Shown here piece by piece: positions 5,755 through 34,098 of a DNA stretch of 64,000 nt. A program made the translations under genes and the position numbers. The DNA comes from an uncultured Gammaproteobacteria bacterium (GTDB lineage: Bacteria; Pseudomonadota; Gammaproteobacteria; UBA9214), in NCBI GenBank assembly GCA_963748215.1, contig CAVVHS010000007.1, positions 384,001-448,000 on the forward strand. Reading direction: 5' to 3'. The notes below the pieces were generated by a model that saw nothing but the letters and a program-made list of their open reading frames with translations, had not been told where the DNA came from and did no database searches. Every line of letters begins with the position of its first letter. The stretch's first letter is position 1.

Positions 5755-7272
5755 GTGAAGCCCGGTCCCGTCATGCTGGTGATCTTCGATGGCTTCGGGC
5801 TCAATCCGAGTCGCGCGCACAATGCCTGGGCGCTGGCGCGTACGCCGCACCTCGACCACTACTTCGCCAGCTGGCCGCATTCCGTGCTGCAGGCCTCCGG
5901 TCGCGCCGTGGGATTGCCGGACGGGCAGTTCGGCAACTCCGAGGTCGGCCACCTGACGCTCGGTTCGGGGCGTATCCTGGAACAGGACCTGGTACGCATT
6001 GCCAATGCGATCTACGACGGCCGGCTCGCACACAACCCGGTCTGGCAGGATATGCTGCAGGGCGCCCGGCGCCTGCACCTGGTGGGCATGGTGTCCGATG
6101 GTGGCGTGCATTCCCACATCGAACACCTGTATGGCGTACTCGACCTGCTGCATGACAGCGGCATCGAGCCCGTGCTGCACATGATCACCGACGGGCGCGA
6201 TACTGCACCGCGGGCCGCACTGGACTATCTCGATCGACTCGAGGACAAGCTGACGCGCCTGGGCACGGGGACCATTGCCACAGTATGCGGGCGCTATTGC
6301 GCCATGGACCGTGCCAGGAACTGGGACCGTACCGAGCGTGCCTGGCGCTGCCTGGTGCGGGCAGACGGGTTGACGGCGGCATCGGTGCGCGCCGCCATCG
6401 AGTCCGCCTATGCACGCGGTGAAGGTGACGAGTTTATCCAGCCCACCGTGATAACAGGCTACCAGGGCATGGATCTGTCCGATCCGGTGTTGTGTTTCAA
6501 CTTCCGCAGCGACCGCATGCGCCAGCTGGCGGCCGCGTTCGGCCTGGCGGAGTTTGATGCCTTTGCGCGCGACGGCAGTGTGCTGCAACGCCTGGTATGC
6601 ATGACCGAATATGATGCGAATTACCCGTTTCCGGTGCTATTCGAGCCGCAATCGCCGCAAGGGGTGCTGGCCGAGCTGATCAGCGCCGCCGGGCTGCGCC
6701 AGCTGCACTGTGCCGAGACCGAGAAATACCCGCACGTCACCTATTTCTTCAACGGCGGCCGCGAACAGCCTTACGCCGGAGAGGAGCGCATCATCGTGCC
6801 ATCGCCCACCGTGGCCACCTACGACATGCAGCCGGAAATGAGCGCGGACAGGGTCGCGGACGAACTGGTCAAGGCCATAGAAAGCGCGCAGTATGATTTC
6901 ATAGTGACCAATTTTGCCAACACCGACATGGTCGGACACACCGCGCGCCGCGAGGCCGTGATCAAGGCCGTGGAGACTATCGACAACGAGAGCCACCGGG
7001 TATTCCGCGCGGCGCTGGAACGCGGCTGGCGCATCCTGCTGACGGCCGATCATGGCAATTGCGACGAAATGGTCAATCCCAATACCGGCGAACCCCATAC
7101 CCAGCACAGTGAGTACCCGGTACCGTTCCTGATCATGGGTGCGGGACCGGTGCGACTGGGGACCGGACGCGGCCTGGCGGACATCGCGCCTACCATCCTC
7201 GATCTGCTGGGTTTGCCACGGCCGCCGGAGATGACCGGGCACAGCCTGATACTGAGAGACGGACTGTTGTGA
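5755..7272 (+). CDS. gpmI: 2,3-bisphosphoglycerate-independent phosphoglycerate mutase
   Basis: LVIFDGFG, GNSEVGH, SDGGVHSH, TDGRD, AMDR, AETEKYPHVT, DMVGHT and TADHGN. Confidence 0.95.
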   Translation: MKPGPVMLVIFDGFGLNPSRAHNAWALARTPHLDHYFASWPHSVLQASGRAVGLPDGQFGNSEVGHLTLGSGRILEQDLVRIANAIYDGRLAHNPVWQDMLQGARRLHLVGMVSDGGVHSHIEHLYGVLDLLHDSGIEPVLHMITDGRDTAPRAALDYLDRLEDKLTRLGTGTIATVCGRYCAMDRARNWDRTERAWRCLVRADGLTAASVRAAIESAYARGEGDEFIQPTVITGYQGMDLSDPVLCFNFRSDRMRQLAAAFGLAEFDAFARDGSVLQRLVCMTEYDANYPFPVLFEPQSPQGVLAELISAAGLRQLHCAETEKYPHVTYFFNGGREQPYAGEERIIVPSPTVATYDMQPEMSADRVADELVKAIESAQYDFIVTNFANTDMVGHTARREAVIKAVETIDNESHRVFRAALERGWRILLTADHGNCDEMVNPNTGEPHTQHSEYPVPFLIMGAGPVRLGTGRGLADIAPTILDLLGLPRPPEMTGHSLILRDGLL

Positions 7273-7282
7273 ACCGGAGACA

Positions 7283-8242
7283 GTGATGAACGATACCCGC
7301 ACTTCCGACATTGCCGTGCTGGCGCACAACCCGGCCGTGGATATCAGCTACGAGGTGGCGCAACTGGTCGCCGATCGCAAGGTGCGCGCGGACCGTACCC
7401 GCTATTTTCCGGGCGGCAACGGCATCAATGTGGCCCGGGCGCTGGCCGAACTGGCGACGCCGTTTCGCTGTTGCAGCGTGGTCGGCGGCGAAAGCGGCGA
7501 TCTGCTGCTGCGCCTGCTCGGTGACCGGTTCGAAGACAATTACAGCATCTTCCGGGTCGCGGGCGAGACCCGGGTCAATGCCACCCTGCTGCAGAAGTCA
7601 CCACCGACCCAGTACGAGGTGGACAGTTGCGGGCCCGAGATACCGCCCGAAATCCTGGACGCTATGGATCGCTGTTTTCTTGCCGACTGCGGCAAAGGAT
7701 TCGGCGTGCTGAGCGGTTCGAACCCGCCCGGCGTACCGGATTCACATCGCCGCCTGCTGGCGGAACAGCTCGGGGCGCAGGGCGGCAGGGCGGTGGTGGA
7801 TGCCTACGGCCCGGTGTTGCAGGAGGCGTTGCAGGCGAACCCGTACCTGCTGCGGCTTAATCGCTACGTGCTGGAAATGACCACCATGCGGCGCCTGGAA
7901 AGCATCGAGGTGGTTGCCGCTGCCGCGCGCGAATTGCAGCAGGGCGGTGTCGAGATCGTCTGCATCTCGCTCGGGGCGGACGGCGCCATCCTGGCCGAGG
8001 CGCAGAACAGCTATCACTGTGCCGCGCCGCGCATGCACGTGCAGTCCACGGTCGGTTGTGGCGACGCGCTGCTGGCCGGCCTGGTGTCCGCTGCCGCGCA
8101 TGGCGCGGATGCACAGGCGATGCTGCGACTCGGTGTCGTGTGCGGCACGGCCACGGCCGCGCACCCGGGAACGGAATTGTTCAGCATCGAGGAAATCGAG
8201 CCTCTGTCCGCCCGGGTGCAGGTGACCGTGCTGGATATCTGA
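7283..8242 (+). CDS. PfkB / 1-phosphofructokinase-family hexose-phosphate kinase
   Basis: NPAVD, PGGNGINVARAL, GETRVN, SLGADGA and STVGCGDALLAG. Confidence 0.85.
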   Translation: MMNDTRTSDIAVLAHNPAVDISYEVAQLVADRKVRADRTRYFPGGNGINVARALAELATPFRCCSVVGGESGDLLLRLLGDRFEDNYSIFRVAGETRVNATLLQKSPPTQYEVDSCGPEIPPEILDAMDRCFLADCGKGFGVLSGSNPPGVPDSHRRLLAEQLGAQGGRAVVDAYGPVLQEALQANPYLLRLNRYVLEMTTMRRLESIEVVAAAARELQQGGVEIVCISLGADGAILAEAQNSYHCAAPRMHVQSTVGCGDALLAGLVSAAAHGADAQAMLRLGVVCGTATAAHPGTELFSIEEIEPLSARVQVTVLDI

Positions 8243-8305: not shown

Positions 8306-8347
8306 TTGACAAATATCAAGGCCGTGGTCTGCAAGCTCTGCTAGTAT
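8306..8347 (+). promoter_or_regulatory. FNR-type box with class II promoter geometry
   Basis: TTGAC-AAAT-ATCAA at 8306-8319 (1 mismatch to TTGAT-N4-ATCAA). TAGTAT at 8342-8347 lies where a -10 is expected for a site centred at -41.5. Confidence 0.65.
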
Positions 8348-8398: not shown

Positions 8399-8587
8399 AT
8401 GAAAGACAAAAACACCACAGCCACGCAGGTCGCTCCGACTGACATCCTGAACGCCAGGAACAGCCTGGAGCTGATGTTGCTCGAATACGGCAACGTCCAT
8501 ATCGAAACACTTGGCCAGCTGCTCAGCCTGACCAGGACGGTTGAAATCGAATACTCGCATATTTGCGCCCACCGCCTTTGCCAATGA
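8399..8587 (+). CDS. Small hypothetical protein (62 aa)
   Basis: ATG after a G-rich RBS-like run and downstream of the FNR-like promoter. Fills the gap before convergent glgP. No recognised family. Confidence 0.5.
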   Translation: MKDKNTTATQVAPTDILNARNSLELMLLEYGNVHIETLGQLLSLTRTVEIEYSHICAHRLCQ

Positions 8588-8627: not shown

Positions 8628-11216
8628 CTACAGCCAGCGCATCAATCCGCATTCCAGCGGATGACTGAGCTGATGGTGGCAGGGATAGTAGCGAATCTTG
8701 AACTGCTGCAGACCGCCCGCCGAACAGACATTCTCCATATCGAACAGATCGCAGCGGAACAGCGTGGCGCCGTCCGCGTGGGTGCCGGACAGGTAGAACA
8801 GCCGCTTGTGGGTCGTCTCGAAGTTCTCATCCTCGTCGATCCGCCCCAGGACGCATTCCACGACGATATCGTCCGGCTGCAGGCCATTGAGCTGCAGCGC
8901 CACTTCGAATGACAGCATTTCGCCGGCCTGGATCGTGGCCGGCACCGGCGAGACCAGCTGCCCGCGCACGGCCGGCCAGGCGCTGGCGACCTGCTGCTTC
9001 CAGGTCGCCAGCTCGCGTGCGCCTTCCGCCGCGTTGGCGGCCAGGCGACGGCCTTCGCGCGCCGCGGGGGAGTAGGACTGCGCCAGGTAATCCATGGCCA
9101 TGCGGATGGTGTTGAAACGCGGCAGGATCGTCTTCATCGAGGCGCGGGCGATGCGCAGCCATTCATCCGAGTAACCCTCGCCGTTACGCGTGTAGTAAGC
9201 GGGGATGACCTGGTATTCAAGAATGTTCATCAACTCCACCGCCTCCAGCTGCTCGCGGGTCTCGCGGTCGAACTCGGGGTGCGGCGTGATGCTCCAGCCA
9301 TTCTCGCCATTCCAGGCCTCGGCCCACCAGCCGTCGGTGACGCTGAGGTTGATGGCGCCGTTGATGGCGGCCTTCATGCCTGAGGTGCCGCAGGCCTCCA
9401 TCGGGTATTCCGGCGTGTTCAGCCAGACGTCGACGCCGGGCAGGAAATCGCGCGTCAGCGAGAGGTTGTAGTTCTCCAGCAGGATGACCCGGCCCTGGAA
9501 TTCCGGGAGCAGGCTGATTTCGAAAATCCTGCGCAGCAACGCCTGCCCCGGCTGGTCGTTGGGATGCGCCTTGCCGGCAAAGACCAGCGTGACCGGTCGC
9601 TGCGGGTCGTTGACCAGACGGGCCAGGCGTTCCAGGTCCCGGAAGATCAGGCCGGCACGCTTGTAGGTCGCGAAGCGGCGCGCGAAGCCGATCAGCAGGG
9701 TGTTGATGTTGCGCGAGGTCAGGTTCGCGGTGAGCCTGCTGGACAGCGACTTGGTGCGCGCACAGCGCTCGTATTGCTGCACTGCACGCTCCCGGATTTC
9801 GTCGATGGCCGCGGCCTTCAGCAGTTGCCGTACGCTGAGGAAGACGTGATCGGGGATCTGGTCGATGAAGCTGTCCCAGAACCCGGTGTCGGTCAGCTTG
9901 GCGCGCCAGCCGCCGCCCATGTACATCTCGAACAGCGCCACCCAGGAACCTGCCAGGTAGCTGTCCACATCGGCGCCGTTGGTGATGTAGCCCATGGGGT
10001 TTTCCGCGACCTGGATCTCCGGCCACGCGTACGACTCCATCTCCGCTGCAATACCGCCGTGGATCCGGCTGACACCGTTGCGGTAGCGCGAGCCGCGCAC
10101 GGCAAGCGAGGTGGTACAGAAACCGTTCGGGTCGCGCGGGTTCGCGCCCAGGGCGAGGAACTGCGCCTCGCTGATGCCCAGGTCATTGGCCGTGTTGCCG
10201 AAATAGTTGCGCATCATGCCGTGGTCGAACACATCGTGACCGGCGGTCACCGGCGTATGGGTGGTGAACGCCGTGGCGGCGGCCACCAGTTCCAGCGCAC
10301 TCGGGAAATCCAGGCCGCTCGTGACCTGCTCGTGGCAGCGCTCCAGTATCTGGAAGGCGGCATGGCCTTCGTTGATGTGCCAGACCGTGGGGTGCAGCTG
10401 CAGGGCGCGCAGGGCGCGCACGCCGCCGATGCCGAGAATGACTTCCTGCTGGATGCGGGTTTCGCGATAGCCGCCGTAGAGCTGTGCCGTCAATTCGCGA
10501 TCGGTCGGACTGTTGTCCTCGACGTCGCTGTCCAGCAGCAACAGGCGAATATGCCCGGCGCGCGCCTCCCAGACGCGCAGTACCAGGCTGCGTCCAGGGA
10601 GGTCGACGCGGACCTTCACTTCCTCGCCGTTGCTGTCCAGCGCCGGGGTTACCGGCAGGTCGCAGGGATCGCTGCGCCGGTAGGTGGCGATCTGGTTGCC
10701 ATTGCAGTCGAAGCGCTGCGTGAAATAGCCGTGCCGGTAAAGGATGCCGATGCCCACAAACGGCACCCACAGGTTGCTCATGGCCTTGCAGTAATCGGCG
10801 GCCAGGATGCCGAGCCCGCCGGCGTAGATGGGCATGCTTTCGTGGAAACCGTACTCGGCGGAGAAATAGGCGATCAGGTCGGCCTTCGAGTCAATGAGCC
10901 TCTCGATGCGCATGCTCGGCATCTGTTCCATGTAGGTATCGTAGCCGGACAGTGTTTGCCGGTATTCGGTCAGCAGGATCGGGTCCTGTGCCGCCTGGTT
11001 GATACGGTCCTGTCGCAGCCGGCGCAGGAATACCCGGGGATTGTGGTCGGAGGCATCCCAGCACTCGGGGTCCAGGTGGCGGAACAGGCGCCGGACGCTG
11101 CGATTCCAGCTGTAATACAGGTCATTGCCGAGCTCGCCAAGGCGTTCGAAGCGCCTGGGCAGGGTCGCCTGGATCTCTACACTGAAGGAAGTGCCGTTAC
11201 GGGTCTTGTCGTTCAT
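8628..11216 (-). CDS. glgP: Alpha-glucan (glycogen) phosphorylase
   Basis: AYFSAEYG, YAGGLGILAAD, HINEGH, FARRFATYKRA, FAGKAHP and PLP-lysine motif EACGTSGMKAAING. Confidence 0.95.
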   Translation of the reverse strand: MNDKTRNGTSFSVEIQATLPRRFERLGELGNDLYYSWNRSVRRLFRHLDPECWDASDHNPRVFLRRLRQDRINQAAQDPILLTEYRQTLSGYDTYMEQMPSMRIERLIDSKADLIAYFSAEYGFHESMPIYAGGLGILAADYCKAMSNLWVPFVGIGILYRHGYFTQRFDCNGNQIATYRRSDPCDLPVTPALDSNGEEVKVRVDLPGRSLVLRVWEARAGHIRLLLLDSDVEDNSPTDRELTAQLYGGYRETRIQQEVILGIGGVRALRALQLHPTVWHINEGHAAFQILERCHEQVTSGLDFPSALELVAAATAFTTHTPVTAGHDVFDHGMMRNYFGNTANDLGISEAQFLALGANPRDPNGFCTTSLAVRGSRYRNGVSRIHGGIAAEMESYAWPEIQVAENPMGYITNGADVDSYLAGSWVALFEMYMGGGWRAKLTDTGFWDSFIDQIPDHVFLSVRQLLKAAAIDEIRERAVQQYERCARTKSLSSRLTANLTSRNINTLLIGFARRFATYKRAGLIFRDLERLARLVNDPQRPVTLVFAGKAHPNDQPGQALLRRIFEISLLPEFQGRVILLENYNLSLTRDFLPGVDVWLNTPEYPMEACGTSGMKAAINGAINLSVTDGWWAEAWNGENGWSITPHPEFDRETREQLEAVELMNILEYQVIPAYYTRNGEGYSDEWLRIARASMKTILPRFNTIRMAMDYLAQSYSPAAREGRRLAANAAEGARELATWKQQVASAWPAVRGQLVSPVPATIQAGEMLSFEVALQLNGLQPDDIVVECVLGRIDEDENFETTHKRLFYLSGTHADGATLFRCDLFDMENVCSAGGLQQFKIRYYPCHHQLSHPLECGLMRWL

Positions 11217-11254: not shown

Positions 11255-12946
11255 TCAGGGTTCCGGTTCCATTACGATATAGGCCGATGGGCATTCGCGG
11301 GCACATATGCCGCAGCCCTTGCAGAAGTCGTAATCAAACACGTAGTACGAGCCGTCTTCGACCGGGCTGCGCGTCTTCAGCACCGCGACGTCCGGGCACA
11401 GGGTCCAGCAGTTGTCGCAGGCCAGGCAATTGCCGCAGGAAAGGCAGCGCAGGGCTTCCTGCGCTGCCTGCTGTGGCGCCAGACCGCCGATGATTTCGGC
11501 ATCGCCGACGCGCTCAGCGACAGCTAGTGTCGGTGCATGCTGGCGGGATTTCGGCTCGAAGTAATTCAGATTGATCTGCGCAGCCGTCACCGGGACTGCC
11601 GCGCGGTCATCGGGGTCGGCCTGACGCTGCACGTCGCGCGCCATGGCCAGCGCGGCGCGCCGCCCGTCGCCGATGGCGCCGCTCACCGTGCCACCGCCGC
11701 CACGCGCGTCGCCGCCGGTGTACAGACCCGGGTGTCCGCGGATGCGGCCATGTTCGCTGGCGGTAAGGAATTCACGCTGCCCGAGCAGCGAGGCCAGGCC
11801 GGCCGGGTCGACGGTCTGGCCGATGGCGGGTATGACCTGTTCGACATGCAGCAGGGTTTCCGTGCCTTCAAAGGAGACGGAGCGGGTGCTGTTGTCGGCC
11901 TCGTGCAGTTTTTTCCGGTGTACGAGTTCCAGGCCGACCACCTGTTCGCCGCGCAGCACCAGGCGCTGCACACCGCGGTGTTCGTGAATGATCACGCCTT
12001 CCTCCATGGCCTGCTCGATTTCACGCGCGATGGCCGGCATGGTGTCCGGCTGCTCGACGCCTGCGCGCGGCAGTGACTCGTGCGTGACCACGTGCACCGC
12101 CTCCACGCCACAGCGTTTGAGGATGCGCGCCAGGTCGATGGCCGTGTTGCCGCCGCCGATGATGGCCGCACTGGACCAGCCGGGCATCGAGCCGACATCC
12201 AGCCAGCGCTTCAGCAGGTCGAGTCCGACGTGCAGGTCGTGCGGCGTGGCACCGTCGATGTCCCAGTCACGGCTGCGCTGGGTGCCCGGCGCCAGAAACA
12301 CCGCCGCGTATTCGGCGTGCAGTTCATCGAGCGAGAAATCCCGCCCGAGCCGTTGCCCCGGGCGGAACGCGATACCGCTGGCCAGCAGGCGTTCGAGTTC
12401 CGGGTCGAGCACGTTGCGCGGCAGGCGGTAAGGTGGCAGGGCGCTGCGCAGCAGGCCGCCGGCTACCGGCAGGGCCTCGAACAGATCCACCCGGTAACCG
12501 AGCCGGGTCAGCTGCCAGGCCGCGGAACAACCGGCCGGTCCGCTGCCGACGACCGCTATGGCCTGTGCACCGTGCGCGACCGGCTGCGCCGGGTAGTCCC
12601 AGCCGGCGGCGATGGCCTGGTCACCCAGCCAGCGCTCCACGTGGTGGATGGCGATCGGTTCGTCGTAGTGGCCGCGGTTGCAGACCTGTTCGCAGGGATG
12701 GTGGCAGACCCGTCCGGTAATCGCGGGCAGCGGATTCGCCGCGACGATGGTTTCCCACGCCTCGCGGTATCGTTCTTCGGCGGCCAGTGCCAGCCAGGCC
12801 TGGCCGTCCTCGCCGGCCGGGCAGGCGGTGTGGCAGGGCGCCGGCCGGTGTTGATGCACCGGGCGTTCGATACGCCAGCTGCCGGTGTGGTAGCGCAGCG
12901 AGGTGCCCGGGTGTGCGAATGCGCCACGTGTCAGCTTCAGGCCCAC
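11255..12946 (-). CDS. GltD/SudA-like FAD/NAD(P) Fe-S oxidoreductase with PorD (delta)-like termini
   Basis: GTG start at 12946 after GGAGG. PGTSLRYHTGSWRIERP; PCHTACP; GRVCHHPCEQVC; GSGPAG; GGGNTAID; C-terminal CLSCGNCLACDNCWTLCP and DYDFCKGCGICARECP. Confidence 0.85.
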   Translation of the reverse strand: MGLKLTRGAFAHPGTSLRYHTGSWRIERPVHQHRPAPCHTACPAGEDGQAWLALAAEERYREAWETIVAANPLPAITGRVCHHPCEQVCNRGHYDEPIAIHHVERWLGDQAIAAGWDYPAQPVAHGAQAIAVVGSGPAGCSAAWQLTRLGYRVDLFEALPVAGGLLRSALPPYRLPRNVLDPELERLLASGIAFRPGQRLGRDFSLDELHAEYAAVFLAPGTQRSRDWDIDGATPHDLHVGLDLLKRWLDVGSMPGWSSAAIIGGGNTAIDLARILKRCGVEAVHVVTHESLPRAGVEQPDTMPAIAREIEQAMEEGVIIHEHRGVQRLVLRGEQVVGLELVHRKKLHEADNSTRSVSFEGTETLLHVEQVIPAIGQTVDPAGLASLLGQREFLTASEHGRIRGHPGLYTGGDARGGGGTVSGAIGDGRRAALAMARDVQRQADPDDRAAVPVTAAQINLNYFEPKSRQHAPTLAVAERVGDAEIIGGLAPQQAAQEALRCLSCGNCLACDNCWTLCPDVAVLKTRSPVEDGSYYVFDYDFCKGCGICARECPSAYIVMEPEP

Positions 12947-18170: not shown

Positions 18171-18213
18171 CAGAGGTGGACCTCGTTTGTTTTGTTAAGG
18201 GTATGGGTAGAGT

Positions 18214-18231
18214 GCATTGTGCCCACAATGC
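18214..18231. promoter_or_regulatory. Perfect palindrome, candidate operator
   Basis: GCATTGTG-CC-CACAATGC. A partial copy, ATTGTGCCCA, lies at 18291-18300. Confidence 0.4.
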
Positions 18232-18266
18232 CCCTGCGTAATTGCCACATCATTCGACCTGTCGTA

Positions 18267-25355: not shown

Positions 25356-25359
25356 GACC

Positions 25360-26118: not shown

Positions 26119-26142
26119 ATGGTGCGCGTGGCGCACCCTACA
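26119..26142. repeat. Single GTAG-type REP palindrome inside the mbx operon
   Basis: GGTGCGCGTGGCGCACCCTAC, the same family as GGTGCGTAAAACGCACCCTAC elsewhere in the window. Confidence 0.55.
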
Positions 26143-26172
26143 AAAGGGAAATTAACCCCGCAGGCAAATTTC

Positions 26173-26712: not shown

Positions 26713-27851
26713 GGCCCGAGAACTACCAGGCGGTCAGTCATCCGCCCAGCCACGAATTCGAGCTGAATATCGGCCCCAACCACCCCGGCATCGAGGGCAA
26801 CTACGCGCTCAAGCTGAAGCTGGAGGGCGACATCGTGGTGGCGGCAAAGGCCGACGCCGGCTACCTGCACCGCGGCTTCGAGAAGCTCATGGAAGGCCGG
26901 TTGTGGATGCAGAACATTGCGCTGGTGCCGCGCATCTGCGTGCCGGACCCGGCGCACATGGAGATCTGCTACGCGCTGGGCGTGGAAATGCTCGGCGGGC
27001 TGGAGGTGCCGGAGCGCGCGCAGTGGCTGCGTGTCATGCAGCTGGAGCTGTCGCGCCTCACCGCGCACCTGTTCTATTTCGGCGGCGCCGCCGCCACCAT
27101 GGGCATGTACAGCAACATGTTCTGGGGCGTGTCCGACCGCGACCTGATACTCGACCTGTTCGAGGAATTCACCGGCGGGCGCGTGTACAGCATGTACAAC
27201 GTGCCCGGCGGCGTGCGCCGCGACCTGCCCGAGGGCTTCATCGGTCGCCTGGTGTCGCTGCTGGATTACCTCGATTCGCGCCTGGACGACTACGACAACC
27301 TGTTCTTCACCAACTACGTGATGGTGCACCGCACGCGCGGCACCGGTGCCATGAACCAGCAGCAGGCGCTGGAATGGGGCGTGACCGGACCCAACCTGCG
27401 TTCCACCGGGCTGGCCTTCGACGTACGCCGTGACGATCCCTACCTGGTGTACGACCAGCTCGAGTTCGACATCCCGGTCGAGGAGGCCGGCGACGCGCTG
27501 TCGCGTATCCTGGTGCGGCGCAACGAGTTGATACAGAGCATCCGCATCCTGCGCCAGGTGGCCGAGCGCCTGCCGTCGATCGGCGGGCCGGTGCGCTGCC
27601 CGCTGCCCAATCCGCTGGCCTGGAACGTGCCGGCCGGCGAGAGCTACGCGCGCGTGGAATCCTCCAAGGGCGAGCTGGCCTACTACACCGTCTCCAATGG
27701 CAGCGACAAGCCGTGGCGCGTGCACATCCGCGGGCCGTCACAGATGCATGGCGTGCAGGTGCTGGAGAACCTCTGCATCGGCGCGCGCATCGAGGACGTC
27801 GCCCAGATCATTTTCACTCTCGACGCCTGTCCGCCGGAGGTCGACCGCTGA
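26709..27851 (+). CDS. NuoD-like catalytic subunit of MBS/MBX type (MbxL/MbsL)
   Basis: GPNHPG, GYLHRGFEKL, PRICVPD, VESSKGE, RGPS and C-terminal LDACPPEVDR. One Cys at each former NiFe site. Confidence 0.88.
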   Translation: MRPENYQAVSHPPSHEFELNIGPNHPGIEGNYALKLKLEGDIVVAAKADAGYLHRGFEKLMEGRLWMQNIALVPRICVPDPAHMEICYALGVEMLGGLEVPERAQWLRVMQLELSRLTAHLFYFGGAAATMGMYSNMFWGVSDRDLILDLFEEFTGGRVYSMYNVPGGVRRDLPEGFIGRLVSLLDYLDSRLDDYDNLFFTNYVMVHRTRGTGAMNQQQALEWGVTGPNLRSTGLAFDVRRDDPYLVYDQLEFDIPVEEAGDALSRILVRRNELIQSIRILRQVAERLPSIGGPVRCPLPNPLAWNVPAGESYARVESSKGELAYYTVSNGSDKPWRVHIRGPSQMHGVQVLENLCIGARIEDVAQIIFTLDACPPEVDR

Positions 27852-29686
27852 TGGCCGATATCGATTACAAGAGCCGCGGCAGCATCCTCAACCCGCTGCG
27901 CAACCTGTCGTTCCTGACGCGCAAGCCGGTCACGCTGCCGCTCGAACCGCGCGAGGCCTCGGCCAATTACCGCGGCTTTCACCTCAACGACTGGGAAAAG
28001 TGCATCGGCTGCAGCACCTGCCAGAAGATCTGCGACAACGAAGCGATTACCATGATCCACATCCCGGACCTGCCGGAGGACCCGATCAAGGGGGTGCGGG
28101 CGCAGCGACCGGCCATCGATTACGGCCGCTGCTGCTGGTGCGGCCTGTGTGTGGACATCTGTCCGACGGCGTCGCTGTCGCTGTCGCGCGAGTACGTGCA
28201 TACCTGCGAGGAACACGAGCTGGACAGCTATTTCATCCTGCCCGACCCGCAGGGCATGCACAAGAAGTTCTACGGCCACGGCTGGCGCAAGACCGCGGAC
28301 GAGGATCTAATTGACCTCGAGCGCCAGGCCATGCCCGAGCAGCCGGCGGAACAGCGCCTGCAGTCGTTCGGCGAATTCGTGCAGGGTTACGACATGCAGC
28401 AGGCCATCGTCGAGGCATCGCGATGCGTGCAGTGCGGCATGTGCCACGATTCCTGCCCGGCACACATGAACGCACCGGAATATATCCGCGCCATCTGGGA
28501 ACAGGACCTGGAGGAGGCGGTGCGCCAGATCTACCGCACCAACCCGTTCGCGCACGTGTGCGGGCGCGTTTGCACGCGGCGCTGCGAGGCGGCCTGTTCC
28601 ATCGGCGTACGGGGCGAGCCGGTGGCTATCCGCTGGCTGAAGCGATATGCCATGGACAGCGTCGGCCATGAACGCATACGCGAGATTGCAGGCGAGGGGC
28701 GTGGCGACTATCTCAGCGGTGGCAAGGTTGCGGTGATCGGTGCCGGACCCGCCGGCCTGACCGCGGCCTTCGACCTGGCACGGCACGGCCACAGCGTCAC
28801 GGTGTACGAGGCGCAGCCGGCGGCGGGCGGCATGATGCGCTACGGCATCCCGGCCTACCGGTTGCCGTACGCGCGCATCGACGACGACGTCGACGTGATT
28901 CGCGCCATGGGCGTCGACATCCAGTACAATACGCGCATTGGCCGCGATATTTCCATGTCGCAGCTGCAGGCGGACTACGATGGCGTACTGCTGGCCATCG
29001 GCCTGTGGAACGGTCGCTCCACGCGCGTGCCCGGTTCGGACCACGCACAGGTGCGCAGTGCGGTCGAGCTGCTGCGCGAGATCACGCTCAACGAGTCCTT
29101 GACGGTGCCGCAGTCGGCTGTGGTCATCGGCGGTGGCAATACCGCCATGGATATCGCGCGCAGCATGGCACGCCTGCAGCTCGTGCAATACGGACAGGCC
29201 AATATCACGCTTACCGCACTGGAAGACGCCGATCACTTGCTGGCCGACCCGGTGGAGATCCGCGAGACCGACGAGGAAGGCATTACCATCCTGCCGGGGC
29301 GCGGTCCGCGCCGCTGCATGATGGACGAGCAGGGCCGGCTGGTCGGGCTGGAGACCGTGCGCGTGGTGTCGCTGCATGACGAACAGGGCCGCTTCGCGCC
29401 GCAATACGACGACGGCGATGTGCAGATGCACGTCGCGGATATGGTGATCGAGGCCATCGGCCAGCAGGCGGACACCTCGCTGCTGAGCGTGGAACTTACC
29501 GAGGCGCTGGAATGGGAGCGCGGCCGGATCAAGACCGATGCCGGCGGTCGCAGCTCGGTCGGCTGGCTGTGGGCGGCCGGCGACGTGGTTACGGGGCCGG
29601 ATGTTATCCACGCCGTGGCCGACGGGCACCGCGTCGCAGCCAGCATCGAGGCCTGCCTGGGACAGGAGAGATATGCCAATGGGTAG
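27851..29686 (+). CDS. NuoI/MbxN-like 2x[4Fe-4S] domain fused to a GltD-like FAD/NAD(P)H oxidoreductase
   Basis: YRGFH..CIGCSTCQKIC and CCWCGLCVDICP, then RCVQCGMCHDSCP, GRVCTRRCEAAC, GAGPAG, GGGNTAMD and AGDVVTGP. Confidence 0.88.
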   Translation: MADIDYKSRGSILNPLRNLSFLTRKPVTLPLEPREASANYRGFHLNDWEKCIGCSTCQKICDNEAITMIHIPDLPEDPIKGVRAQRPAIDYGRCCWCGLCVDICPTASLSLSREYVHTCEEHELDSYFILPDPQGMHKKFYGHGWRKTADEDLIDLERQAMPEQPAEQRLQSFGEFVQGYDMQQAIVEASRCVQCGMCHDSCPAHMNAPEYIRAIWEQDLEEAVRQIYRTNPFAHVCGRVCTRRCEAACSIGVRGEPVAIRWLKRYAMDSVGHERIREIAGEGRGDYLSGGKVAVIGAGPAGLTAAFDLARHGHSVTVYEAQPAAGGMMRYGIPAYRLPYARIDDDVDVIRAMGVDIQYNTRIGRDISMSQLQADYDGVLLAIGLWNGRSTRVPGSDHAQVRSAVELLREITLNESLTVPQSAVVIGGGNTAMDIARSMARLQLVQYGQANITLTALEDADHLLADPVEIRETDEEGITILPGRGPRRCMMDEQGRLVGLETVRVVSLHDEQGRFAPQYDDGDVQMHVADMVIEAIGQQADTSLLSVELTEALEWERGRIKTDAGGRSSVGWLWAAGDVVTGPDVIHAVADGHRVAASIEACLGQERYANG

Positions 29687-30206
29687 TGATACAGATACAC
29701 GCAGCCGGGAGGGCGCCTTGCATGGCAAGGACCTGCTGGCGTCGAAAAAGTCGCTGCAGGACATCCTGCTCGTGGCAACGGCCTTCGAGAAGACGGCGCG
29801 CGATTTCTACACGGCGTTGATTCCGCGCGTCAGCAAGCAGATCCGCTACCTGGTGGAGGAGCTGGCGGAAGAGGAGCAGCGTCACTACGACCTGTTCACT
29901 GAGCTGGCGAAATCACCGGACATCAACGAGCTTGTCCACGCGCAGGTTACTGTGCCCGTCAACGACCACCATTTTTCCGACTACGTGCACATGCCGGAAA
30001 TCGATGATGCGCCGGATGACCAGGCAATCCTGCAATATGCGCTCGCACGCGAGCATGCTGCGATGGAGCAGTATCGCGACCTCGCCAATAACACCGAATC
30101 AGGCCCGATCCACGACCTGTTCGAGTTCCTGGCCATCGAGGAGACCAAGCACAAGCGCGAACTGGAGAAGATCTACTACGAGACGGTGCACAGCGGGGGC
30201 GTCTGA
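29673..30206 (+). CDS. Ferritin-like / rubrerythrin-family diiron protein
   Basis: FEKTARDFY..LAEEEQRH and REHAAMEQY..LAIEETKH, i.e. duplicated E...ExxH motifs. Overlaps the upstream stop codon. Confidence 0.82.
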   Translation: MPMGSDTDTRSREGALHGKDLLASKKSLQDILLVATAFEKTARDFYTALIPRVSKQIRYLVEELAEEEQRHYDLFTELAKSPDINELVHAQVTVPVNDHHFSDYVHMPEIDDAPDDQAILQYALAREHAAMEQYRDLANNTESGPIHDLFEFLAIEETKHKRELEKIYYETVHSGGV

Positions 30207-30255
30207 GCCGGACCTGCAAACGCCATCCAGCGGGTTATCCGTTTTAAGCGGTTTA

Positions 30256-30464
30256 AATGGCCACGGAATCCACGGCAGAACACGGAAAACACGTAGGATG
30301 CACTCCGTGCACCATTGGGTGAGACGTGAGACGTGAACAGCAGAATGGCCACGGAATCAACGGCAGAACACGGAAAACACGTAGGATGCACTCCGTGCAC
30401 CATTGGGTGAGACGTGAGACGTGAACAGCAGAATGGCCACGGAATCAACGGCAGAACACGGAAT
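30256..30464. repeat. 88-bp tandem repeat (2 full units plus a partial) built from REP-like parts
   Basis: Units start at 30256, 30344 and 30432: AATGGCCACGGAATC(C/A)ACGGCAGAACACGGAA + GTAGGATGCACTCCGTGCACC + GTGAGACGTGAGACGTGA. Confidence 0.85.
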
Positions 30465-30495
30465 GACGTCAAGAACCTCTACGAGTCTATACCTC

Positions 30496-30581
30496 GCCAT
30501 TGCGAGCGGAGCGAAGCAATCTTTCGATTTCATGATCAGTCGGCTGGAGATCGCTTCGTCACTGCATTCCTCGCAATGACG
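30496..30581. repeat. Palindromic element of the CATTGCGAG...GCAATC / CTCGCAATGAC type
   Basis: CATTGCGAGCGGAGCGAAGCAATCT ... AGATCGCTTCGTCACTGCATTCCTCGCAATGAC. Confidence 0.6.
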
Positions 30582-30609
30582 GGATGATCAGGGTTACCTT
30601 GAATAAATA

Positions 30610-30690
30610 GCCACGGAAACACACGGAAGAACACGGAATGAATCTGGATTTTTCCGTGTTCTTCCGTGTTCTTCCGTGGATTCCGTGGCA
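30610..30690. repeat. Inverted pair of CACGGAA-motif repeats
   Basis: GCCACGGAAACACACGGAAGAACACGGAA ... TTCCGTGTTCTTCCGTGTTCTTCCGTGGATTCCGTGGC. Confidence 0.7.
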
Positions 30691-30843
30691 ATAATAACTG
30701 GCTGCATTAATGCCACAGCAATCACCGAATAACGCTTATGTGATCAGAATATTTCCGTGATTTCCGTGGCCATAATCCAGCTTTACAGAATTTGCGGACA
30801 GGCTGTATGGTGTGACCTGCATAGGTAACAACAGGGGACAATA

Positions 30844-31860
30844 ATGCAACTGGGAATGATCGGCCTCGGGCGCATGGGCGCCAACATGGTTCAGCGCCTG
30901 ATGCGTGCCGGGCACGAATGCGTGGTCTACGACCGCAACCCGGAGGCGGTGCATGGCCTGGAGTCGCACGGTGCGTTCGGCACCACCAATCTCGACGGCT
31001 TTATCGCCAGCCTCGACAAGCCGCGCGCCATCTGGCTGATGGTGCCGGCCGCCGTGGTCGACCGCGTGATCGACGAGCTGGCGCCGCAGCTCGAGGCGGG
31101 CGACATCCTGATCGACGGCGGTAATTCGTATTACCGTGACGACATCATGCGCGCCGCTCAGTTGCAGGCACGCGGTATCCACTATCTCGACGTCGGCACC
31201 AGCGGCGGTGTGTGGGGCCTGGAGCGCGGCTACTGCCTGATGATCGGCGGCGAGCAGGATATCGTCGCGCACCTCGAGCCGCTGTTTTCCACGCTGGCAC
31301 CGGGTGTCGGCGACATCCCGCGCACGCAGGGCCGCAGCGGTCCGCCGGCGCGCGCCGAACAGGGCTACCTGCACTGTGGTCCGGCCGGCGCCGGGCACTT
31401 CGTGAAAATGGTGCATAACGGCATCGAGTACGGCCTGATGGCAGCCTACGCCGAGGGTCTGAACATTCTGGCGCACGCCAATGTCGGCAACGACGGGCAT
31501 GCCGAGGACGCCGAGACCACGCCGCTGCGCGACCCGGACGCGTTCCGCTACGATATCGACCTCGCCGCGGTGACCGAGCTGTGGCGGCGTGGCAGCGTGG
31601 TCAGTTCGTGGCTGCTGGATCTCACCGCAGAGGCGCTGCAGCGCAGCCCCGACCTGGCGGAGTTCAGCGGTCACGTGTCCGATTCCGGCGAGGGCCGCTG
31701 GACCAGCATCGCCGCCATCGAGTGCGGTGCGCCGGCACGCGTGCTGACCACGGCGCTGTACGACCGTTTCACCTCGCGCGGCGAATCGGACTTCGCCGAC
31801 AAGGTGCTGTCCGCCATGCGCTTCGGTTTCGGCGGGCATCATGAGAAACGTGAATCGTGA
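30844..31860 (+). CDS. gnd: Decarboxylating 6-phosphogluconate dehydrogenase, short (YqeC) type
   Basis: GLGRMG, IDGGNS, DVGTSGG, GHFVKMVHNGIEYG, DSGEGRW and MRFGFGGH. Confidence 0.95.
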   Translation: MQLGMIGLGRMGANMVQRLMRAGHECVVYDRNPEAVHGLESHGAFGTTNLDGFIASLDKPRAIWLMVPAAVVDRVIDELAPQLEAGDILIDGGNSYYRDDIMRAAQLQARGIHYLDVGTSGGVWGLERGYCLMIGGEQDIVAHLEPLFSTLAPGVGDIPRTQGRSGPPARAEQGYLHCGPAGAGHFVKMVHNGIEYGLMAAYAEGLNILAHANVGNDGHAEDAETTPLRDPDAFRYDIDLAAVTELWRRGSVVSSWLLDLTAEALQRSPDLAEFSGHVSDSGEGRWTSIAAIECGAPARVLTTALYDRFTSRGESDFADKVLSAMRFGFGGHHEKRES

Positions 31861-31870
31861 GAGGTGATTT

Positions 31871-33394
31871 GTGAGTGAGGTCGACACGGCGTCCCCCAGT
31901 GTCATGGTGATCTTCGGCGCCGGCGGGGACCTGACCCGGCGCAAGCTGATTCCGGCCATCTACTACCTGTGCCGCGATGGCCTCCTGCCGGAGACCTTTG
32001 CCGTGCTCGGCGTGGACCGCAGGGACACCGACGACGATGGCTACCGCGCACATATCGACATGAACGGCAGGGAATTCATCGGCGAAGACATCGACGATGC
32101 ACTCTGGCAGCGCCTGCTGGGTTGTCTGCAGTTCGAGTCGGGGGATTTTTCCGATCCGGACCTGTACCCGCGCCTGGCCGGGCGGCTTGGCAAACTGGTG
32201 GCCGAACGCGATATTGCACCGAATTACCTGTTCTATTTCGCGACCCCGCCGCGCTTCTTCGATGTGATAGCCGGCCTGCTCGGCAGTGCCGGGTTGTTGC
32301 AGGAAGAGGCCGGACACTGGCGGCGCGTGGTGATCGAGAAACCATTCGGGCATGACCTGGCCTCGGCGCGGGAAATGAACCGCGCGCTGCACACGGTGAT
32401 GGCCGAGCACCAGATCTACCGCATCGATCACTATCTCGGCAAGGAATCGGTACAGAATATCCTCGCCTACCGTTTCGCCAACGCTACCGTCGAGCCGATC
32501 TGGAACCGGCGCTATGTCGACCACGTGCAGATCACGGTGTCTGAATCCATTGGTGTCGAGACGCGCGGCAACTATTACGACCAGGCCGGTGCGCTGCGCG
32601 ACATGGTGCCGAATCACCTGCTGGCACTGCTCTCGGTGATTGCGATGGAACCGTCCAACTCTTTCGATGCTGATGCCATTCGCGACGAGCAGGTCAAGGT
32701 GCTGCGCGCCATCCAGCCGTTCGAGCCGGACGATGTGCTGACCCACGCCGTGCGCGGCCAGTATGCGGCAGGCCGCCTGCCCGACGGGCGTATGGTGCCG
32801 GCCTATCGTGAAGAGCCCAGGGTCGTGCCGCGTTCGAACACCGAGACCTATGCCGCGCTCAAGCTGAATATCGATTCCTGGCGCTGGGCCGGTGTGCCGT
32901 TCTACCTGCGTACCGGCAAATGCATGCCGGGCCGCTTCACCGAGGTGGTGATCCAGTTCCGCCACGCGCCGAACGTGATGTTCCGTGACTCACTGCTGAC
33001 GCGCGAGAATGTGCCGGCCAACTGCCTGGTGCTGCGTATCCAGCCGAACGAGGGCATCGGCATGAGCTTCAATGCCAAGATCCCGGGACACAGCACGCAC
33101 CTGGGCACGGTGGACATGAATTTCCGCTACGAGGACCACTTCGAGAACAAGCCCAGCAACGGTTACGAAACGCTGATCCACGATGTCATGACCGGCGACT
33201 CGACACTGTTCAAGCGCGCCGATCACATCGAGGCGAGCTGGGCACTGGTGGAGCCGGTGCTCGACGTGTGGTCGGCGCTGCCGCCACGCGATTTCCCCAA
33301 CTATGCCGCAGGTAGCTGGGGCCCGGTCGCGGCGGAAGAGCTGCTGAGACGCGACGGCCGTGCCTGGCGGCCCTGCAAGCGATGTCAACAGTGA
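31871..33394 (+). CDS. zwf: Glucose-6-phosphate 1-dehydrogenase
   Basis: FGAGGDLTRRKL, IEKPFG, RIDHYLGKE and WAGVPFYLRTGK. Confidence 0.96.
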   Translation: MSEVDTASPSVMVIFGAGGDLTRRKLIPAIYYLCRDGLLPETFAVLGVDRRDTDDDGYRAHIDMNGREFIGEDIDDALWQRLLGCLQFESGDFSDPDLYPRLAGRLGKLVAERDIAPNYLFYFATPPRFFDVIAGLLGSAGLLQEEAGHWRRVVIEKPFGHDLASAREMNRALHTVMAEHQIYRIDHYLGKESVQNILAYRFANATVEPIWNRRYVDHVQITVSESIGVETRGNYYDQAGALRDMVPNHLLALLSVIAMEPSNSFDADAIRDEQVKVLRAIQPFEPDDVLTHAVRGQYAAGRLPDGRMVPAYREEPRVVPRSNTETYAALKLNIDSWRWAGVPFYLRTGKCMPGRFTEVVIQFRHAPNVMFRDSLLTRENVPANCLVLRIQPNEGIGMSFNAKIPGHSTHLGTVDMNFRYEDHFENKPSNGYETLIHDVMTGDSTLFKRADHIEASWALVEPVLDVWSALPPRDFPNYAAGSWGPVAAEELLRRDGRAWRPCKRCQQ

Positions 33395-34098
33395 GTCTCA
33401 AGTTGCCAGGCAGGACTGCGGCGAACTGGCACGTGCTGCCGAATATCGACCAGCTGGAAGAGGTGGTTACGCAACGCATCCTGGCACGGGCCGCGGCGTC
33501 GATCGCCGACCACGGCAGATTCCGCGTCGTGCTGGCTGGCGGACGTACGCCGGCCGCCGTGTACCGGCGCCTGGCGGCCGCCGACGCCGACTGGGCACAC
33601 TGGCTGGTGTATTTCGGCGACGAACGCTGCCTGCCTGCGGACAGCCCGGAGCGCAACAGCGTAATGGCAGCGCAAGCCTGGCTTGCGCAGGTACCGATCC
33701 CGCCCGGCAATATCCATCCCATCCCGGCGGAGCAGGGCGCCGTGGTTGCGGCCGAGGCCTACCGCGCGCCGGTGCGTGCCGCGTTGCCGTTCGACCTGGT
33801 ATTGCTCGGCATGGGCGAGGACGGCCACACGGCCAGCCTGTTTCCGGGCCAGACATATTCGCAAGGTGAGCTGGTGCACGCGGTGCATGACGCACCCAAG
33901 CCACCGCCGGACCGGGTCAGCCTGGGCCTGGCGGCGCTGAACGACGCCGAGGCCGTACTGGTGCTCGTGACCGGCGGTGGCAAGTGCGCTGCCGTCGAGC
34001 GCTGGCGCCGTGGCGAGGACCTGCCGGTGGCGCATTTGCACGGGCGGCACGGTGTGGATGTCTACCTCGATGCAGTGGCCGCTGGCATGGAGGACTGA
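33382..34098 (+). CDS. pgl: 6-phosphogluconolactonase
   Basis: LAGGRTP, FGDERC and DLVLLGMGEDGHTASLFPG. Start may be the GTG at 33391. Confidence 0.93.
   Translation: MSTVSLKLPGRTAANWHVLPNIDQLEEVVTQRILARAAASIADHGRFRVVLAGGRTPAAVYRRLAAADADWAHWLVYFGDERCLPADSPERNSVMAAQAWLAQVPIPPGNIHPIPAEQGAVVAAEAYRAPVRAALPFDLVLLGMGEDGHTASLFPGQTYSQGELVHAVHDAPKPPPDRVSLGLAALNDAEAVLVLVTGGGKCAAVERWRRGEDLPVAHLHGRHGVDVYLDAVAAGMED

Follow-up and report, generated by a model that had tools for sequence, protein, structure and literature searches.

What does a gene block that combines glycogen breakdown, pyruvate oxidation and an ion-pumping membrane complex do in a bacterium that oxidises sulfur? The question is raised by a stretch of 64,000 nucleotides (referred to below as the window; G+C content 64%) on contig C7 of an uncultured marine sulfur-oxidising bacterium, the 3.5-Mb genome of which is assembled in 9 contigs. 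Positions 5755–34098 of the window hold two divergent operons, the leftward ppsA-porG-porA-porB-(porD::DsrL-like flavoprotein)-glgP and the rightward mbxABCDEGHH'MJKL-(mbxN::NfnB-like flavoprotein)-rubrerythrin, accompanied by gpmI-pfkB and gnd-zwf-pgl. A first-pass annotation had taken the entire block for a co-regulated module that mobilises glycogen under anoxia and passes the electrons through NAD(P)H to sulfane sulfur. Support has been found for a complex like the membrane-bound sulfane reductase (MBS), for a nicotinamide-cofactor module, for FNR-type boxes and for a tie to oxidation by reverse dissimilatory sulfite reductase (rDsr), but not for the whole island as a unit, for a link to NADPH or for a role of DsrC. 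The account that is preferred here is that a low-oxygen regulon turns on glycogen and pyruvate catabolism, and that the MBS-type complex re-oxidises NADH at sulfane sulfur; it is put forward tentatively, as a possibility that falls somewhat short of probable.

Genes were called with Pfam and NCBIfam scans, and their starts were set by start-codon mapping. All gene families named in the first-pass annotation are present in the block and their coordinates hold, although the position of ppsA, the end of the operon for the predicted pyruvate oxidoreductase (POR) and the state of a cysteine in a nearby DsrC-like protein needed correcting. The complete Mrp–Mbx complex that had been announced is there: the 13 mbx genes, with starts and stops that overlap, follow the order of the MBS genes (mrp-like A–G, H/H', M, J, K, L, N), and the domains of the Mrp-type module (mbxA–G) comprise MNHE, PhaG_MnhG, MbhD, MnhB/MbhE and Oxidored_q2. 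Intra-operon gaps in both operons range from overlaps up to 69 nucleotides (nt).

The kind of complex is indicated by its L and J subunits. Among Protein Data Bank entries, MbxL matches the MBS of Pyrococcus furiosus best by a wide margin (6u8y_L, E 3.6e-115), as compared with Thermus Nqo4 (E 5.5e-79) and the membrane-bound hydrogenase MBH (6cfw_L, E 1.4e-34). Its RICVPDP and DACPPEVDR motifs align with RICVPEP and DNCPPDIDR of 6u8y_L, with two of the four [NiFe] cysteines kept (MbsL C85 and C385). A hydrogenase is ruled out, since each C-x-x-C motif of MbxL has only one cysteine left. A quinone reductase is ruled out as well: in the alignment to 2fug_4, His38 and Tyr87 of Nqo4, which serve as ligands of the quinone head group (PMC7684303), are replaced by Glu29 and Val78. 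MbxJ is likewise closest to 6u8y_J (E 3.6e-64, as against 8.6e-29 for MBH) in an alignment that is gapless over 168 residues, in which C45, C48, C113 and C143 correspond to MbsJ C25, C28, C93 and C123, and at the sequence level it keeps the shortened C-x-x-C motif of MbsJ. In MBS, three cysteines (C28, C93 and C123) hold the proximal cluster, and the shortened motif leaves one of its irons without a cysteine, which is the proposed site of polysulfide reduction (PMC7684303). Judged by these motifs, the complex is an enzyme of the MBS/Mbx type and neither a hydrogenase nor a canonical quinone reductase; the first-pass annotation had likewise called it MBS-like.

How electrons would enter the complex is suggested by a fusion. 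MbxN carries a 450-residue NfnB/GltD-like FAD flavoprotein (full-length PRK13984 match, 803.8 bits). In bacteria such a fusion is general: wherever tblastn picked up sequence behind mbxL in related loci (80 of 80), it was the mbxN fusion. Clusters of such fusions at 66% identity or more number at least 120, with tubeworm symbionts among them, in which the protein bears no annotation beyond 'FAD-dependent oxidoreductase' or 'glutamate synthase small chain'. A second flavoprotein, of 563 residues, is encoded in the POR operon and has the order N-terminal dicluster, FAD/NAD domains, linker and C-terminal dicluster. It reaches 494 bits with PRK12771, just below the cut-off of 516, and 64.9 bits with PorD_KorD, above the cut-off of 60.05; its gene has a GTG start with a GGAGG motif and overlaps porB by 10 nt.

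Neither module appears suited to NADPH. In Thermotoga maritima NfnB, residues Y310-R311-R312 hold the 2'-phosphate of NADPH, and DsrL proteins with this YRR motif use NADP(H) while those without it use NAD(H) (PMC7596348). Relative to NfnB (4ylf_B), the MbxN fusion has A-L-E at the place of YRR, with ALED kept in 120 of the 120 closest homologues listed, and the PorD fusion has T-H-E there. Because of these replacements, NAD(H) is predicted to be the likelier cofactor of both modules, and the PorD fusion is predicted to be the subunit that links POR to NAD(H). The proposed electron flow via NAD(P)H is thereby upheld as regards a nicotinamide-cofactor module, but its NADPH motif is missing in both places.

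The substrate of this POR is predicted to be pyruvate from its best NCBIfam matches, and it is the only POR of the genome that was matched with porA as query. With potentials of about −500 mV for pyruvate/acetyl-CoA and −320 mV for NAD, a POR that reduces NAD+ would operate in the oxidative direction only, which suits fermentation rather than CO2 fixation. The genome also encodes RuBisCO, glgA and acetate kinase.

The tie to sulfur oxidation rests on 400 genomes sampled evenly from the class, all of them 85% complete or better, which were searched for MbxL (E ≤ 1e-80) and dsrA (E ≤ 1e-60). An Mbx-type MbxL occurs in 21 of them, 16 of type 1, and one genome has both types. As many as 20 of the 21 carriers have dsrA, in comparison with 105 of the 379 non-carriers (Fisher p 4e-10, a value that is overstated, as kin are not independent), and all 16 type-1 carriers do. 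In this class Mbx is thus near-exclusive to rDsr sulfur oxidisers, and the correlation that the first-pass annotation had asked for holds as regards rDsr. An orthologue of the PorD-flavoprotein (at least 54% identity) is found in 8 of the 16 type-1 carriers and in 14 of the other 384 genomes, again with kin that are not independent.

The link between the complex and carbon metabolism comes from the promoters. Only two perfect TTGA-N6-TCAA palindromes occur in the window (at 8306 and 18267), where 0.33 are expected, and two or more appeared in 5 of 100 shuffles. One lies between the two divergent operons, as does a second, imperfect box with one mismatch; the other precedes a small open reading frame (ORF) between pfkB and glgP. 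In the genome under study (G000) and in two relatives (G002 and G007) the half-sites of the box at 18267 are kept, with the spacers GAAT, GGTT and GCCC, respectively; those at 8306 are kept around a varying spacer in the same three genomes, and the box at 18367 is kept in G002 and G007, also with varying spacers, while the ppsA/mbxA and pfkB/glgP intergenic regions are otherwise poorly conserved. Such conservation of half-sites around variable spacers appears to be more than chance, and in these alignments the pattern is the footprint of a dimeric regulator of the CRP/FNR type, of which (HTH_Crp_2) the genome encodes four. The boxes that had been noticed between the divergent arms are therefore conserved elements in all three genomes.

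Perfect TTGAY-N4-RTCAA boxes number 31 genome-wide, compared with about 4.8 expected from base composition. Eighteen ORFs beside or near them, the hox region described below included, were annotated with Pfam, and one had no Pfam family. Among the genes that start within 450 nt of a box are those for a CcoI/FixI-type ATPase, OmpW, a universal stress protein, NirS, a NosR/NirI-like and a COX2-like protein, as well as malic enzyme, a class-I (DeoC/LacD-family) aldolase (fbaB), PPK2, a MoxR ATPase and pgi. Because the same box precedes classical low-oxygen genes (nirS, ccoI-type, ompW and usp), it marks, judging by these neighbours, a low-oxygen/denitrification regulon that includes ppsA-por-glgP, mbx and two further glycolytic steps. 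The small ORF stands about 80–90 nt behind a perfect box in each of the three genomes, and its codons are conserved in G002 and G007; neither a Pfam family nor a usable match in the ESM Atlas was obtained for it, and it may encode a low-oxygen-induced small protein.

How much of this arrangement is shared by relatives was examined at three distances. Among 24 other species of the genus, a type-1 MbxL is found in two, G002 (96% identity) and G007 (89%). G002 is the only congener with the whole island, from the DsrC-like gene through pgl. In G007, rbr-mbx and ppsA-porGAB-flavoprotein-glgP are preserved together with the small ORF, but gpmI, pfkB, gnd, zwf and pgl were not found on its 33-kb contig, so that gpmI-pfkB and gnd-zwf-pgl adjoin the core in G000 and G002 only. 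Five congeners carry a type-2 MbxL instead, which is 45–47% identical and has lost both L-subunit cysteines; in one of these, G023, the type-2 operon is followed by a ppsA orthologue (81–84% over two query pieces), with glgP 7 kb further on.

Type-2 loci were seen as L004–L008 (G024, G010, G023, G015 and G001) and in G147, G152, G310, G325, G353 and G220; here MbxL is 45–50% identical, with the motifs RIAVPEP and HTYPPEIE, and the MbxN fusion is kept while rubrerythrin is missing. In G024 and G015 a distant PEP-utilising enzyme (PEP, phosphoenolpyruvate; 27–30% identical to PpsA) stands directly upstream of the type-2 mbxA.

Further away, a pattern scan of 185,579 species genomes gave 80 mbx-like loci, 27 of them with a type-1 MbxL (68–78% identity). 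By the labels of their metagenome-assembled genomes, the type-1 loci come from Sedimenticola, Candidatus Thiodiazotropha, a Lamellibrachia symbiont, Thiomargarita, Thiohalobacterales, Thioalkalispiraceae, Chromatiales/Chromatiaceae, Hydrogenophilales and Thiobacillaceae; a type-1 fragment labelled Candidatus Bathyarchaeota (L048, MbxL 75% identical) is probably misbinned. The operon is kept in all 27, and rubrerythrin in all 21 whose contig passes mbxN. When the 208 flanking ORFs of the 27 loci were clustered, a sensor-kinase-like family was shared by 6 loci, and otherwise only families confined to three Thiodiazotropha loci emerged. Separately, three of the 80 loci (L052, L083 and L087, from a Spirochaetes, a Sulfurovum and a gammaproteobacterial genome, respectively) have zwf directly beside the mbx-like operon, accompanied by pgl in L083; this adjacency may reflect a tie to the oxidative pentose-phosphate pathway that recurs, though rarely.

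Finally, 10 carriers outside the genus were examined within 20 kb on either side of the operon. The ppsA-por-mbx linkage is repeated in one of them, G043, which belongs to another family (f20). There, on one strand, a perfect box is followed after 61 nt by a class-I aldolase gene, 74% identical to the boxed aldolase of G000, and then by an AtpC-like gene, ppsA, porG, porA, porB and the PorD-flavoprotein; after a 0.6-kb gap come mbxA to rbr, and glgP lies 6.5 kb beyond. The AtpC-like gene (L112:7691–8140, 149 residues) is a stand-alone relative of the ATP-synthase epsilon subunit. The 28-kb island is therefore specific to the genus, while the core linkage of box, lower glycolysis, NAD-type POR and Mbx has arisen or been kept in two families and in two arrangements. 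Conservation of the neighbourhood, which the first-pass annotation had proposed to look for, is thus seen for the core, which recurs in G043, and fails for the island as a whole, found only in G002 and in part in G007. Likewise, the idea of a co-regulated module would apply to the boxed divergent core and not to gpmI-pfkB and gnd-zwf-pgl, which are metabolically fitting neighbours in this genus that are not demonstrably part of the unit.

Under the preferred reading, exhaustion of oxygen would lead to the phosphorolysis and glycolysis of stored glycogen, and pyruvate would be oxidised by POR with transfer of the electrons via the PorD-flavoprotein to NAD+. The NADH would then be re-oxidised by Mbx, through a path from FAD over the [4Fe-4S] chain to the three-cysteine proximal cluster of MbxJ, where sulfane sulfur (polysulfide or persulfide from stored S0) would be reduced while the Mrp-like arm exports Na+ or H+. 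Sulfur reduction is a plausible function of Mbx; the anatomy, motifs, boxes and distribution have been established, and the substrate, direction, ion coupling and induction are inferred.

A considerable number of observations weigh against this account. Electron transfer from NADH to sulfur yields only about 10 kJ per two electrons, a value near the 12 kJ quoted for MBH (PMC8165549), and because this energy is small, Mbx must work near equilibrium, which makes ion pumping in that direction marginal. PpsA normally works towards PEP, and ppsA is out of frame in this assembly. The two cysteines that are retained in MbxL prove little, since their counterparts in MbsL are dispensable (PMC7684303). 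The loss of YRR from both flavoprotein modules weakens the link to the NADPH-forming zwf and gnd, no box with up to one mismatch was found ahead of gpmI-pfkB or gnd-zwf-pgl, and convergent or repeat-filled spacers lie between the core and both of these groups. Elsewhere, a count restricted to perfect boxes found one upstream of mbxA in just 1 of 14 further type-1 loci, the PorD-flavoprotein is present in only half of the type-1 carriers, and none of the 27 type-1 loci is flanked by ppsA, gnd, zwf or pgl, within flanks of at least 1 kb upstream in 14 loci and at least 6.7 kb downstream in 13. Seven of the 10 carriers outside the genus had none of the queried island genes within the 20 kb on either side, G275 had only a distant por-like pair, and in G084 a ppsA-like gene lies 16 kb away.

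Another electron sink could also be available. On the minus strand of C7:457500–484300 in contig coordinates, 10–36 kb past the window (L126, L130 and L131), are a second phosphorylase, hoxF-U-Y-H, a small gene, PEP carboxykinase, a GltD-like gene and a boxed class-I aldolase, with a boxed pgi and glgA a few kb further. The hox products, NuoE/F-, NuoG- and NuoB-like proteins and NiFe subunits, make up a Hox-type NAD-linked hydrogenase, which is encoded beside the second phosphorylase and could compete with Mbx for electrons. The neighbourhood recalls the glycogen–Hox fermentative hydrogen route of cyanobacteria.

Since the enzyme must work near equilibrium, the opposite direction deserves weight, although it is unlikely on balance. 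Mbx would here use the Na+/H+ gradient to drive electrons from sulfide or polysulfide (about −270 mV) to NAD+ (−320 mV), so that NADH for CO2 fixation is obtained without reverse electron transport at the quinone level, and it would run reversed only in anoxia. The oxidative type of the dsrA found in all 16 type-1 and in 20 of all 21 carriers suits this proposal, as do the RuBisCO of the host and the operons that stand without carbon genes in most carriers. In addition, the flavoprotein resembles DsrL-1 in having no YRR, and DsrL-1 favours the reduction of NAD+ in A. vinosum (PMC7596348). However, in this genus and in G043 the boxes place mbx among fermentative and low-oxygen genes, the Mbx of Candidatus Endoriftia persephone is co-expressed with the reductive tricarboxylic acid (rTCA) cycle, hydrogenases and V-ATPase rather than with Sox, rDsr or the Calvin–Benson–Bassham (CBB) cycle (PMC11636981), and T. 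maritima mbxA is induced 4.4-fold by S0 as acceptor (PMC9431562).

Both directions could be combined if the Mbx-flavoprotein of rDsr Gammaproteobacteria were a reversible, ion-coupled NADH:sulfane-sulfur oxidoreductase that respires sulfur globules in anoxia and is reversed with sulfide and oxygen, a proposal to which we give a rather small chance. In that event, NADH derived from glycogen would respire sulfur globules in anoxia, which would account for the 'dark sulfur respiration' of Chromatium, Beggiatoa and thiotrophic symbionts, while in the presence of sulfide and oxygen NADH would come straight from sulfide for about one ion, bypassing quinone-level reverse electron flow.

Equally small is the chance that a NADH-oxidising pump of the Mbx type serves a different acceptor. 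Candidates are persulfides or trisulfides bound to proteins or thiols (carriers of the DsrC/TusA type, glutathione polysulfide), thiosulfate and tetrathionate, or a role related to peroxide or oxygen together with the co-transcribed rubrerythrin, the last gene in 21 of 21 type-1 operons. MBS takes an organic trisulfide, DMTS, in vitro (PMC7684303), and the block is preceded, at a distance of 1.2 kb, by a DsrC-family gene; nevertheless, the DsrC-like protein is without its active cysteine and the gene is unboxed, and no carrier gene is conserved beside mbx in the 27 type-1 loci.

It is somewhat less likely still that there is no functional unit at all, the carbon genes and mbx being neighbours by descent in one genus, the box the sign of a broad low-oxygen regulon, and Mbx serving something unrelated to glycogen. 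The restriction of the whole island to G002, the flanks of the other type-1 loci, the seven carriers without island genes, the single repetition in G043 and the many kinds of genes beside the 31 boxes all agree with this view. What speaks for a unit is that the ppsA-por-mbx linkage reappears in family f20 in another order and orientation and again behind a box, that a type-2 mbx stands beside ppsA and glgP in G023, and that the PorD-flavoprotein is enriched among carriers, albeit among related genomes.

The least likely account, and an improbable one, is the older model of Mbx as a Rnf-like ferredoxin:NAD(P)+ oxidoreductase that sets POR ferredoxin against NAD+ and moves ions without any sulfur: bacterial mbx has been read in this way (Degli Esposti 2015, PMC4758237, and a Mesotoga preprint) and POR does adjoin mbx here, but this POR has a NAD-type flavoprotein of its own in place of a free PorD/ferredoxin route, the coupling appears to need a substrate at the MbxL/J/M pocket that a path at the tip of the peripheral arm would bypass, as can be deduced from the MBS structure, and the P. 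furiosus Mbx has been re-assigned to polysulfide reduction (both PMC7684303).

The complex itself is of a known type, and it is the gene context and the cofactor prediction that are new. With the MBS of P. furiosus (6U8Y; PMC7684303) it has in common the 13-gene order, the Mrp-type module, the vestigial L cysteines and the short J motif. In contrast to MBS, which has a free, ferredoxin-accepting MbsN and belongs to a sugar-fermenting archaeon, the present complex has N fused to an NfnB/DsrL-like flavoprotein that lacks the NADPH motif, its operon ends in an additional rubrerythrin gene, and its host is a mesophilic sulfur oxidiser with the CBB cycle and rDsr. The mbx-gltD-rubrerythrin operon of proteobacteria has already been described, with a gltD-type flavoprotein at the place of NuoI, a terminal rubrerythrin and vestigial NuoD cysteines as here, in a purely comparative study that reads the complex as a ferredoxin:NADP+ oxidoreductase; the available portion of its account does not contain the POR/ppsA/glgP linkage, the FNR-type boxes or the rDsr tie (PMC4758237). 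A putative Mrp-Mbx has also been reported from Candidatus Endoriftia persephone, for which S0 reduction with a sodium gradient was suggested and the direction was left open (Mitchell et al. 2024, PMC11636981). Proteins of tubeworm symbionts share about 70% identity with the MbxN fusion; the evidence there is the co-expression mentioned above and not gene neighbourhood or promoters, and no mention of the flavoprotein fusion was found in the available text (PMC11636981). The first-pass annotation, which knew of no description of the arrangement, was thus right only in part, as the operon and the putative Mrp-Mbx are on record. The linkage of Mbx to a POR/ppsA/glgP operon, its FNR-type control and its rDsr tie were not found in the searchable literature (which leaves out supplements and subscription journals), where nothing was found on a 'membrane-bound sulfane reductase' in Gammaproteobacteria either.

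The PorD fusion resembles DsrL, the NAD(P)H:acceptor oxidoreductase of rDsrAB (PMC7596348), in its domain order, in the T-x-E of DsrL-1 at the place of YRR and in its dsrAB-type host. By definition, DsrL genes have no immediate linkage to genes of pyruvate/ketoisovalerate:ferredoxin oxidoreductases (criterion 3 of PMC7596348), whereas this gene lies within the POR operon and the C-terminal domain of its product scores as PorD; because it overlaps porB, it is regarded as encoding a DsrL-like PorD fusion and not a DsrL. The use of POR linkage as an exclusion criterion implies that POR-linked DsrL-like genes are known to exist, and no characterisation of them was found.

Two other NAD(P)-linked enzymes of this class, 2-oxoglutarate:NADP+ oxidoreductase and the NADH-dependent phenylglyoxylate dehydrogenase PadEFGHI of Azoarcus evansii, oxidise 2-oxoacids. 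Enzymes of the Pad type share with this POR the core of a 2-oxoacid:ferredoxin oxidoreductase and a flavoprotein that leads to nicotinamide, and the PadE, PadG, PadI and PadF models match porG, porA, porB and porD, respectively; however, the scores are far under the Pad cut-offs and the flavoprotein is of another type.

The interest of the locus lies in a physiological problem. When oxygen is absent, bacteria that store sulfur, and thiotrophic symbionts likewise, produce sulfide from their reserves of sulfur and carbon, as older physiological work established, and to our knowledge the responsible enzyme has not been pinned down. Mbx is a testable candidate for the enzyme by which such bacteria breathe stored sulfur, and its place in a predicted low-oxygen, glycogen- and pyruvate-catabolic regulon of a sulfur oxidiser provides what appears to be the clearest genomic argument so far. 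Furthermore, the class-wide association of Mbx with rDsr is put on record, together with the prediction that POR and Mbx both communicate with NAD(H) through DsrL/NfnB-like modules. These points about the regulon, rDsr and NAD(H) are testable in cultured carriers such as Sedimenticola. If true, an additional ion-coupled step of sulfur reduction (or of NAD+ reduction) would have to be reckoned with when energy is budgeted for chemosynthetic symbioses and for sediment sulfur oxidisers under fluctuating oxygen.

Table 1. Genes, spacers and boxes of the block and its DsrC-like neighbour (window positions).
Feature	Position	Strand	Remarks
DsrC/TusE-family gene	4214–4567	+	DsrC domain; TIGR03342 60.1 bits
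gpmI	5755–7272	+	Pfam/NCBIfam
PfkB hexose-phosphate kinase gene	7283–8242	+	Pfam/NCBIfam
Spacer pfkB/glgP			385 nt; contains the 62-codon small ORF
Box	8306–8319		TTGAC-N4-ATCAA; FNR/CRP-type palindrome, ~80 nt upstream of small ORF
Small ORF	8399–8587	+	62 residues; between the 3' ends of pfkB and glgP
glgP	8628–11216	−	alpha-glucan (glycogen/maltodextrin) phosphorylase; DUF3417 + Phosphorylase; TIGR02094 732.7 bits, above cut-off; last gene of minus-strand operon
PorD::DsrL/NfnB/GltD-like FAD flavoprotein gene	11255–12946	−	563 residues; Fer4_20 + Pyr_redox_2 + C-terminal dicluster
porB	12937–13935	−	beta subunit, binds thiamine pyrophosphate; TPP_enzyme_C; best NCBIfam match PorB 368.5 bits
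porA	13947–15233 (maximal ORF)	−	alpha subunit; POR_N + PFOR_II; PorA_Arch 401.8 bits from residue 43
porG/porC	15100–15675	−	gamma subunit; POR domain; PorC_KorC 186.4 bits, above cut-off
ppsA	15745–18170	−	PEP synthase; first gene of minus-strand operon; PPDK_N, PEP-utilizers, PEP-utilizers_C over two ORFs
Spacer ppsA/mbxA	18171–18622		divergent; ~450 nt
Box	18267–18280		TTGAC-N4-GTCAA; FNR/CRP-type palindrome in divergent ppsA/mbxA promoter region
Box	18367–18380		aTGAT-N4-GTCAA; second, imperfect (one mismatch)
mbxA	18623–19105	+	Mrp-type Na+/H+ module
mbxB	19102–19368	+	Mrp-type Na+/H+ module
mbxC	19365–19697	+	Mrp-type Na+/H+ module
mbxD	19697–19990	+	Mrp-type Na+/H+ module
mbxE	19990–20679	+	Mrp-type Na+/H+ module
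mbxG	20676–21134	+	Mrp-type Na+/H+ module
mbxH	21134–22591	+	antiporter-like pump subunit; Proton_antipo_M
mbxH'	22588–24450	+	antiporter-like pump subunit; Proton_antipo_M
mbxM	24450–25355	+	NuoH-like membrane anchor; NADHdh
mbxJ	25360–26091	+	NuoB-like; proximal [4Fe-4S] cluster subunit
mbxK	26119–26712	+	NuoC-like; Complex1_30kDa
mbxL	26709–27851	+	NuoD/NiFe-large-subunit-like
mbxN	27851–29686	+	NuoI-like 2x[4Fe-4S], fused to NfnB/GltD-like FAD flavoprotein; Fer4 + Fer4_20 + Pyr_redox_2
Rubrerythrin-like gene (rbr)	29679–30206	+	ferritin-like di-iron protein; Rubrerythrin; last in mbx operon
Spacer rbr/gnd	30207–30843		637 nt; filled with direct repeats
gnd	30844–31860	+	short type; oxidative pentose-phosphate operon
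zwf	31871–33394	+	oxidative pentose-phosphate operon
pgl	33382–34098	+	oxidative pentose-phosphate operon

In the leftward operon (Table 1), the true start of porA is probably about 40 codons inside the maximal ORF. The interval 11255–13534, which had been taken for ppsA, is rejected as such, as 11255–12946 is the PorD::flavoprotein according to Pfam and NCBIfam. The actual ppsA is read in three frames, with its N-terminus in the third; when it is compared with the uninterrupted genes of G002 (807 residues), G007 and G023, one 1-nt insertion is seen near 17999 and another near 17307. As dsrA (G000:C6:353160–354375, frameshifted) and nuoD (G000:C6:1020290–1021542) of the same genome, which like ppsA would be expected to be essential or intact, are likewise split over several frames, the indels in ppsA are probably assembly errors rather than signs of gene decay.

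The DsrC/TusE-family gene, which the first-pass annotation had drawn into its argument, is present upstream of the block as claimed, but its value is weakened, since the catalytic cysteine is missing: the protein keeps the 'QGC' cysteine at the CysB position, while its C-terminus (...GFGSVQ) has no penultimate cysteine. For this reason a functional DsrC or TusE is ruled out, and the gene is probably mere context and not part of the module. Its ...APAGSSDRGFGSVQ tail replaces the ...PTGCV end, and the protein is 72% identical in G002, where the gene has the same place. The remainder of the left flank comprises genes for an ABC-F ATPase, an EF-P-like protein, a NYN-domain protein and DUF924.

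To the right of the mbx operon, the rbr/gnd spacer contains a unit of about 85–90 nt in two direct copies, as read by eye, together with short GC-poor repeats and inverted copies of a motif of the 'CCACGGAA/TTCCGTG' type. These repeats look like elements of the REP/MITE type and set gnd-zwf-pgl apart from the mbx operon. The gnd product passes the cut-offs of both the 'NAD+-dependent' and the 'NADP-dependent' NCBIfam models. Beyond pgl the flank is unrelated and consists of unknowns and of genes for a GNAT protein, an M48 peptidase and DUF898.

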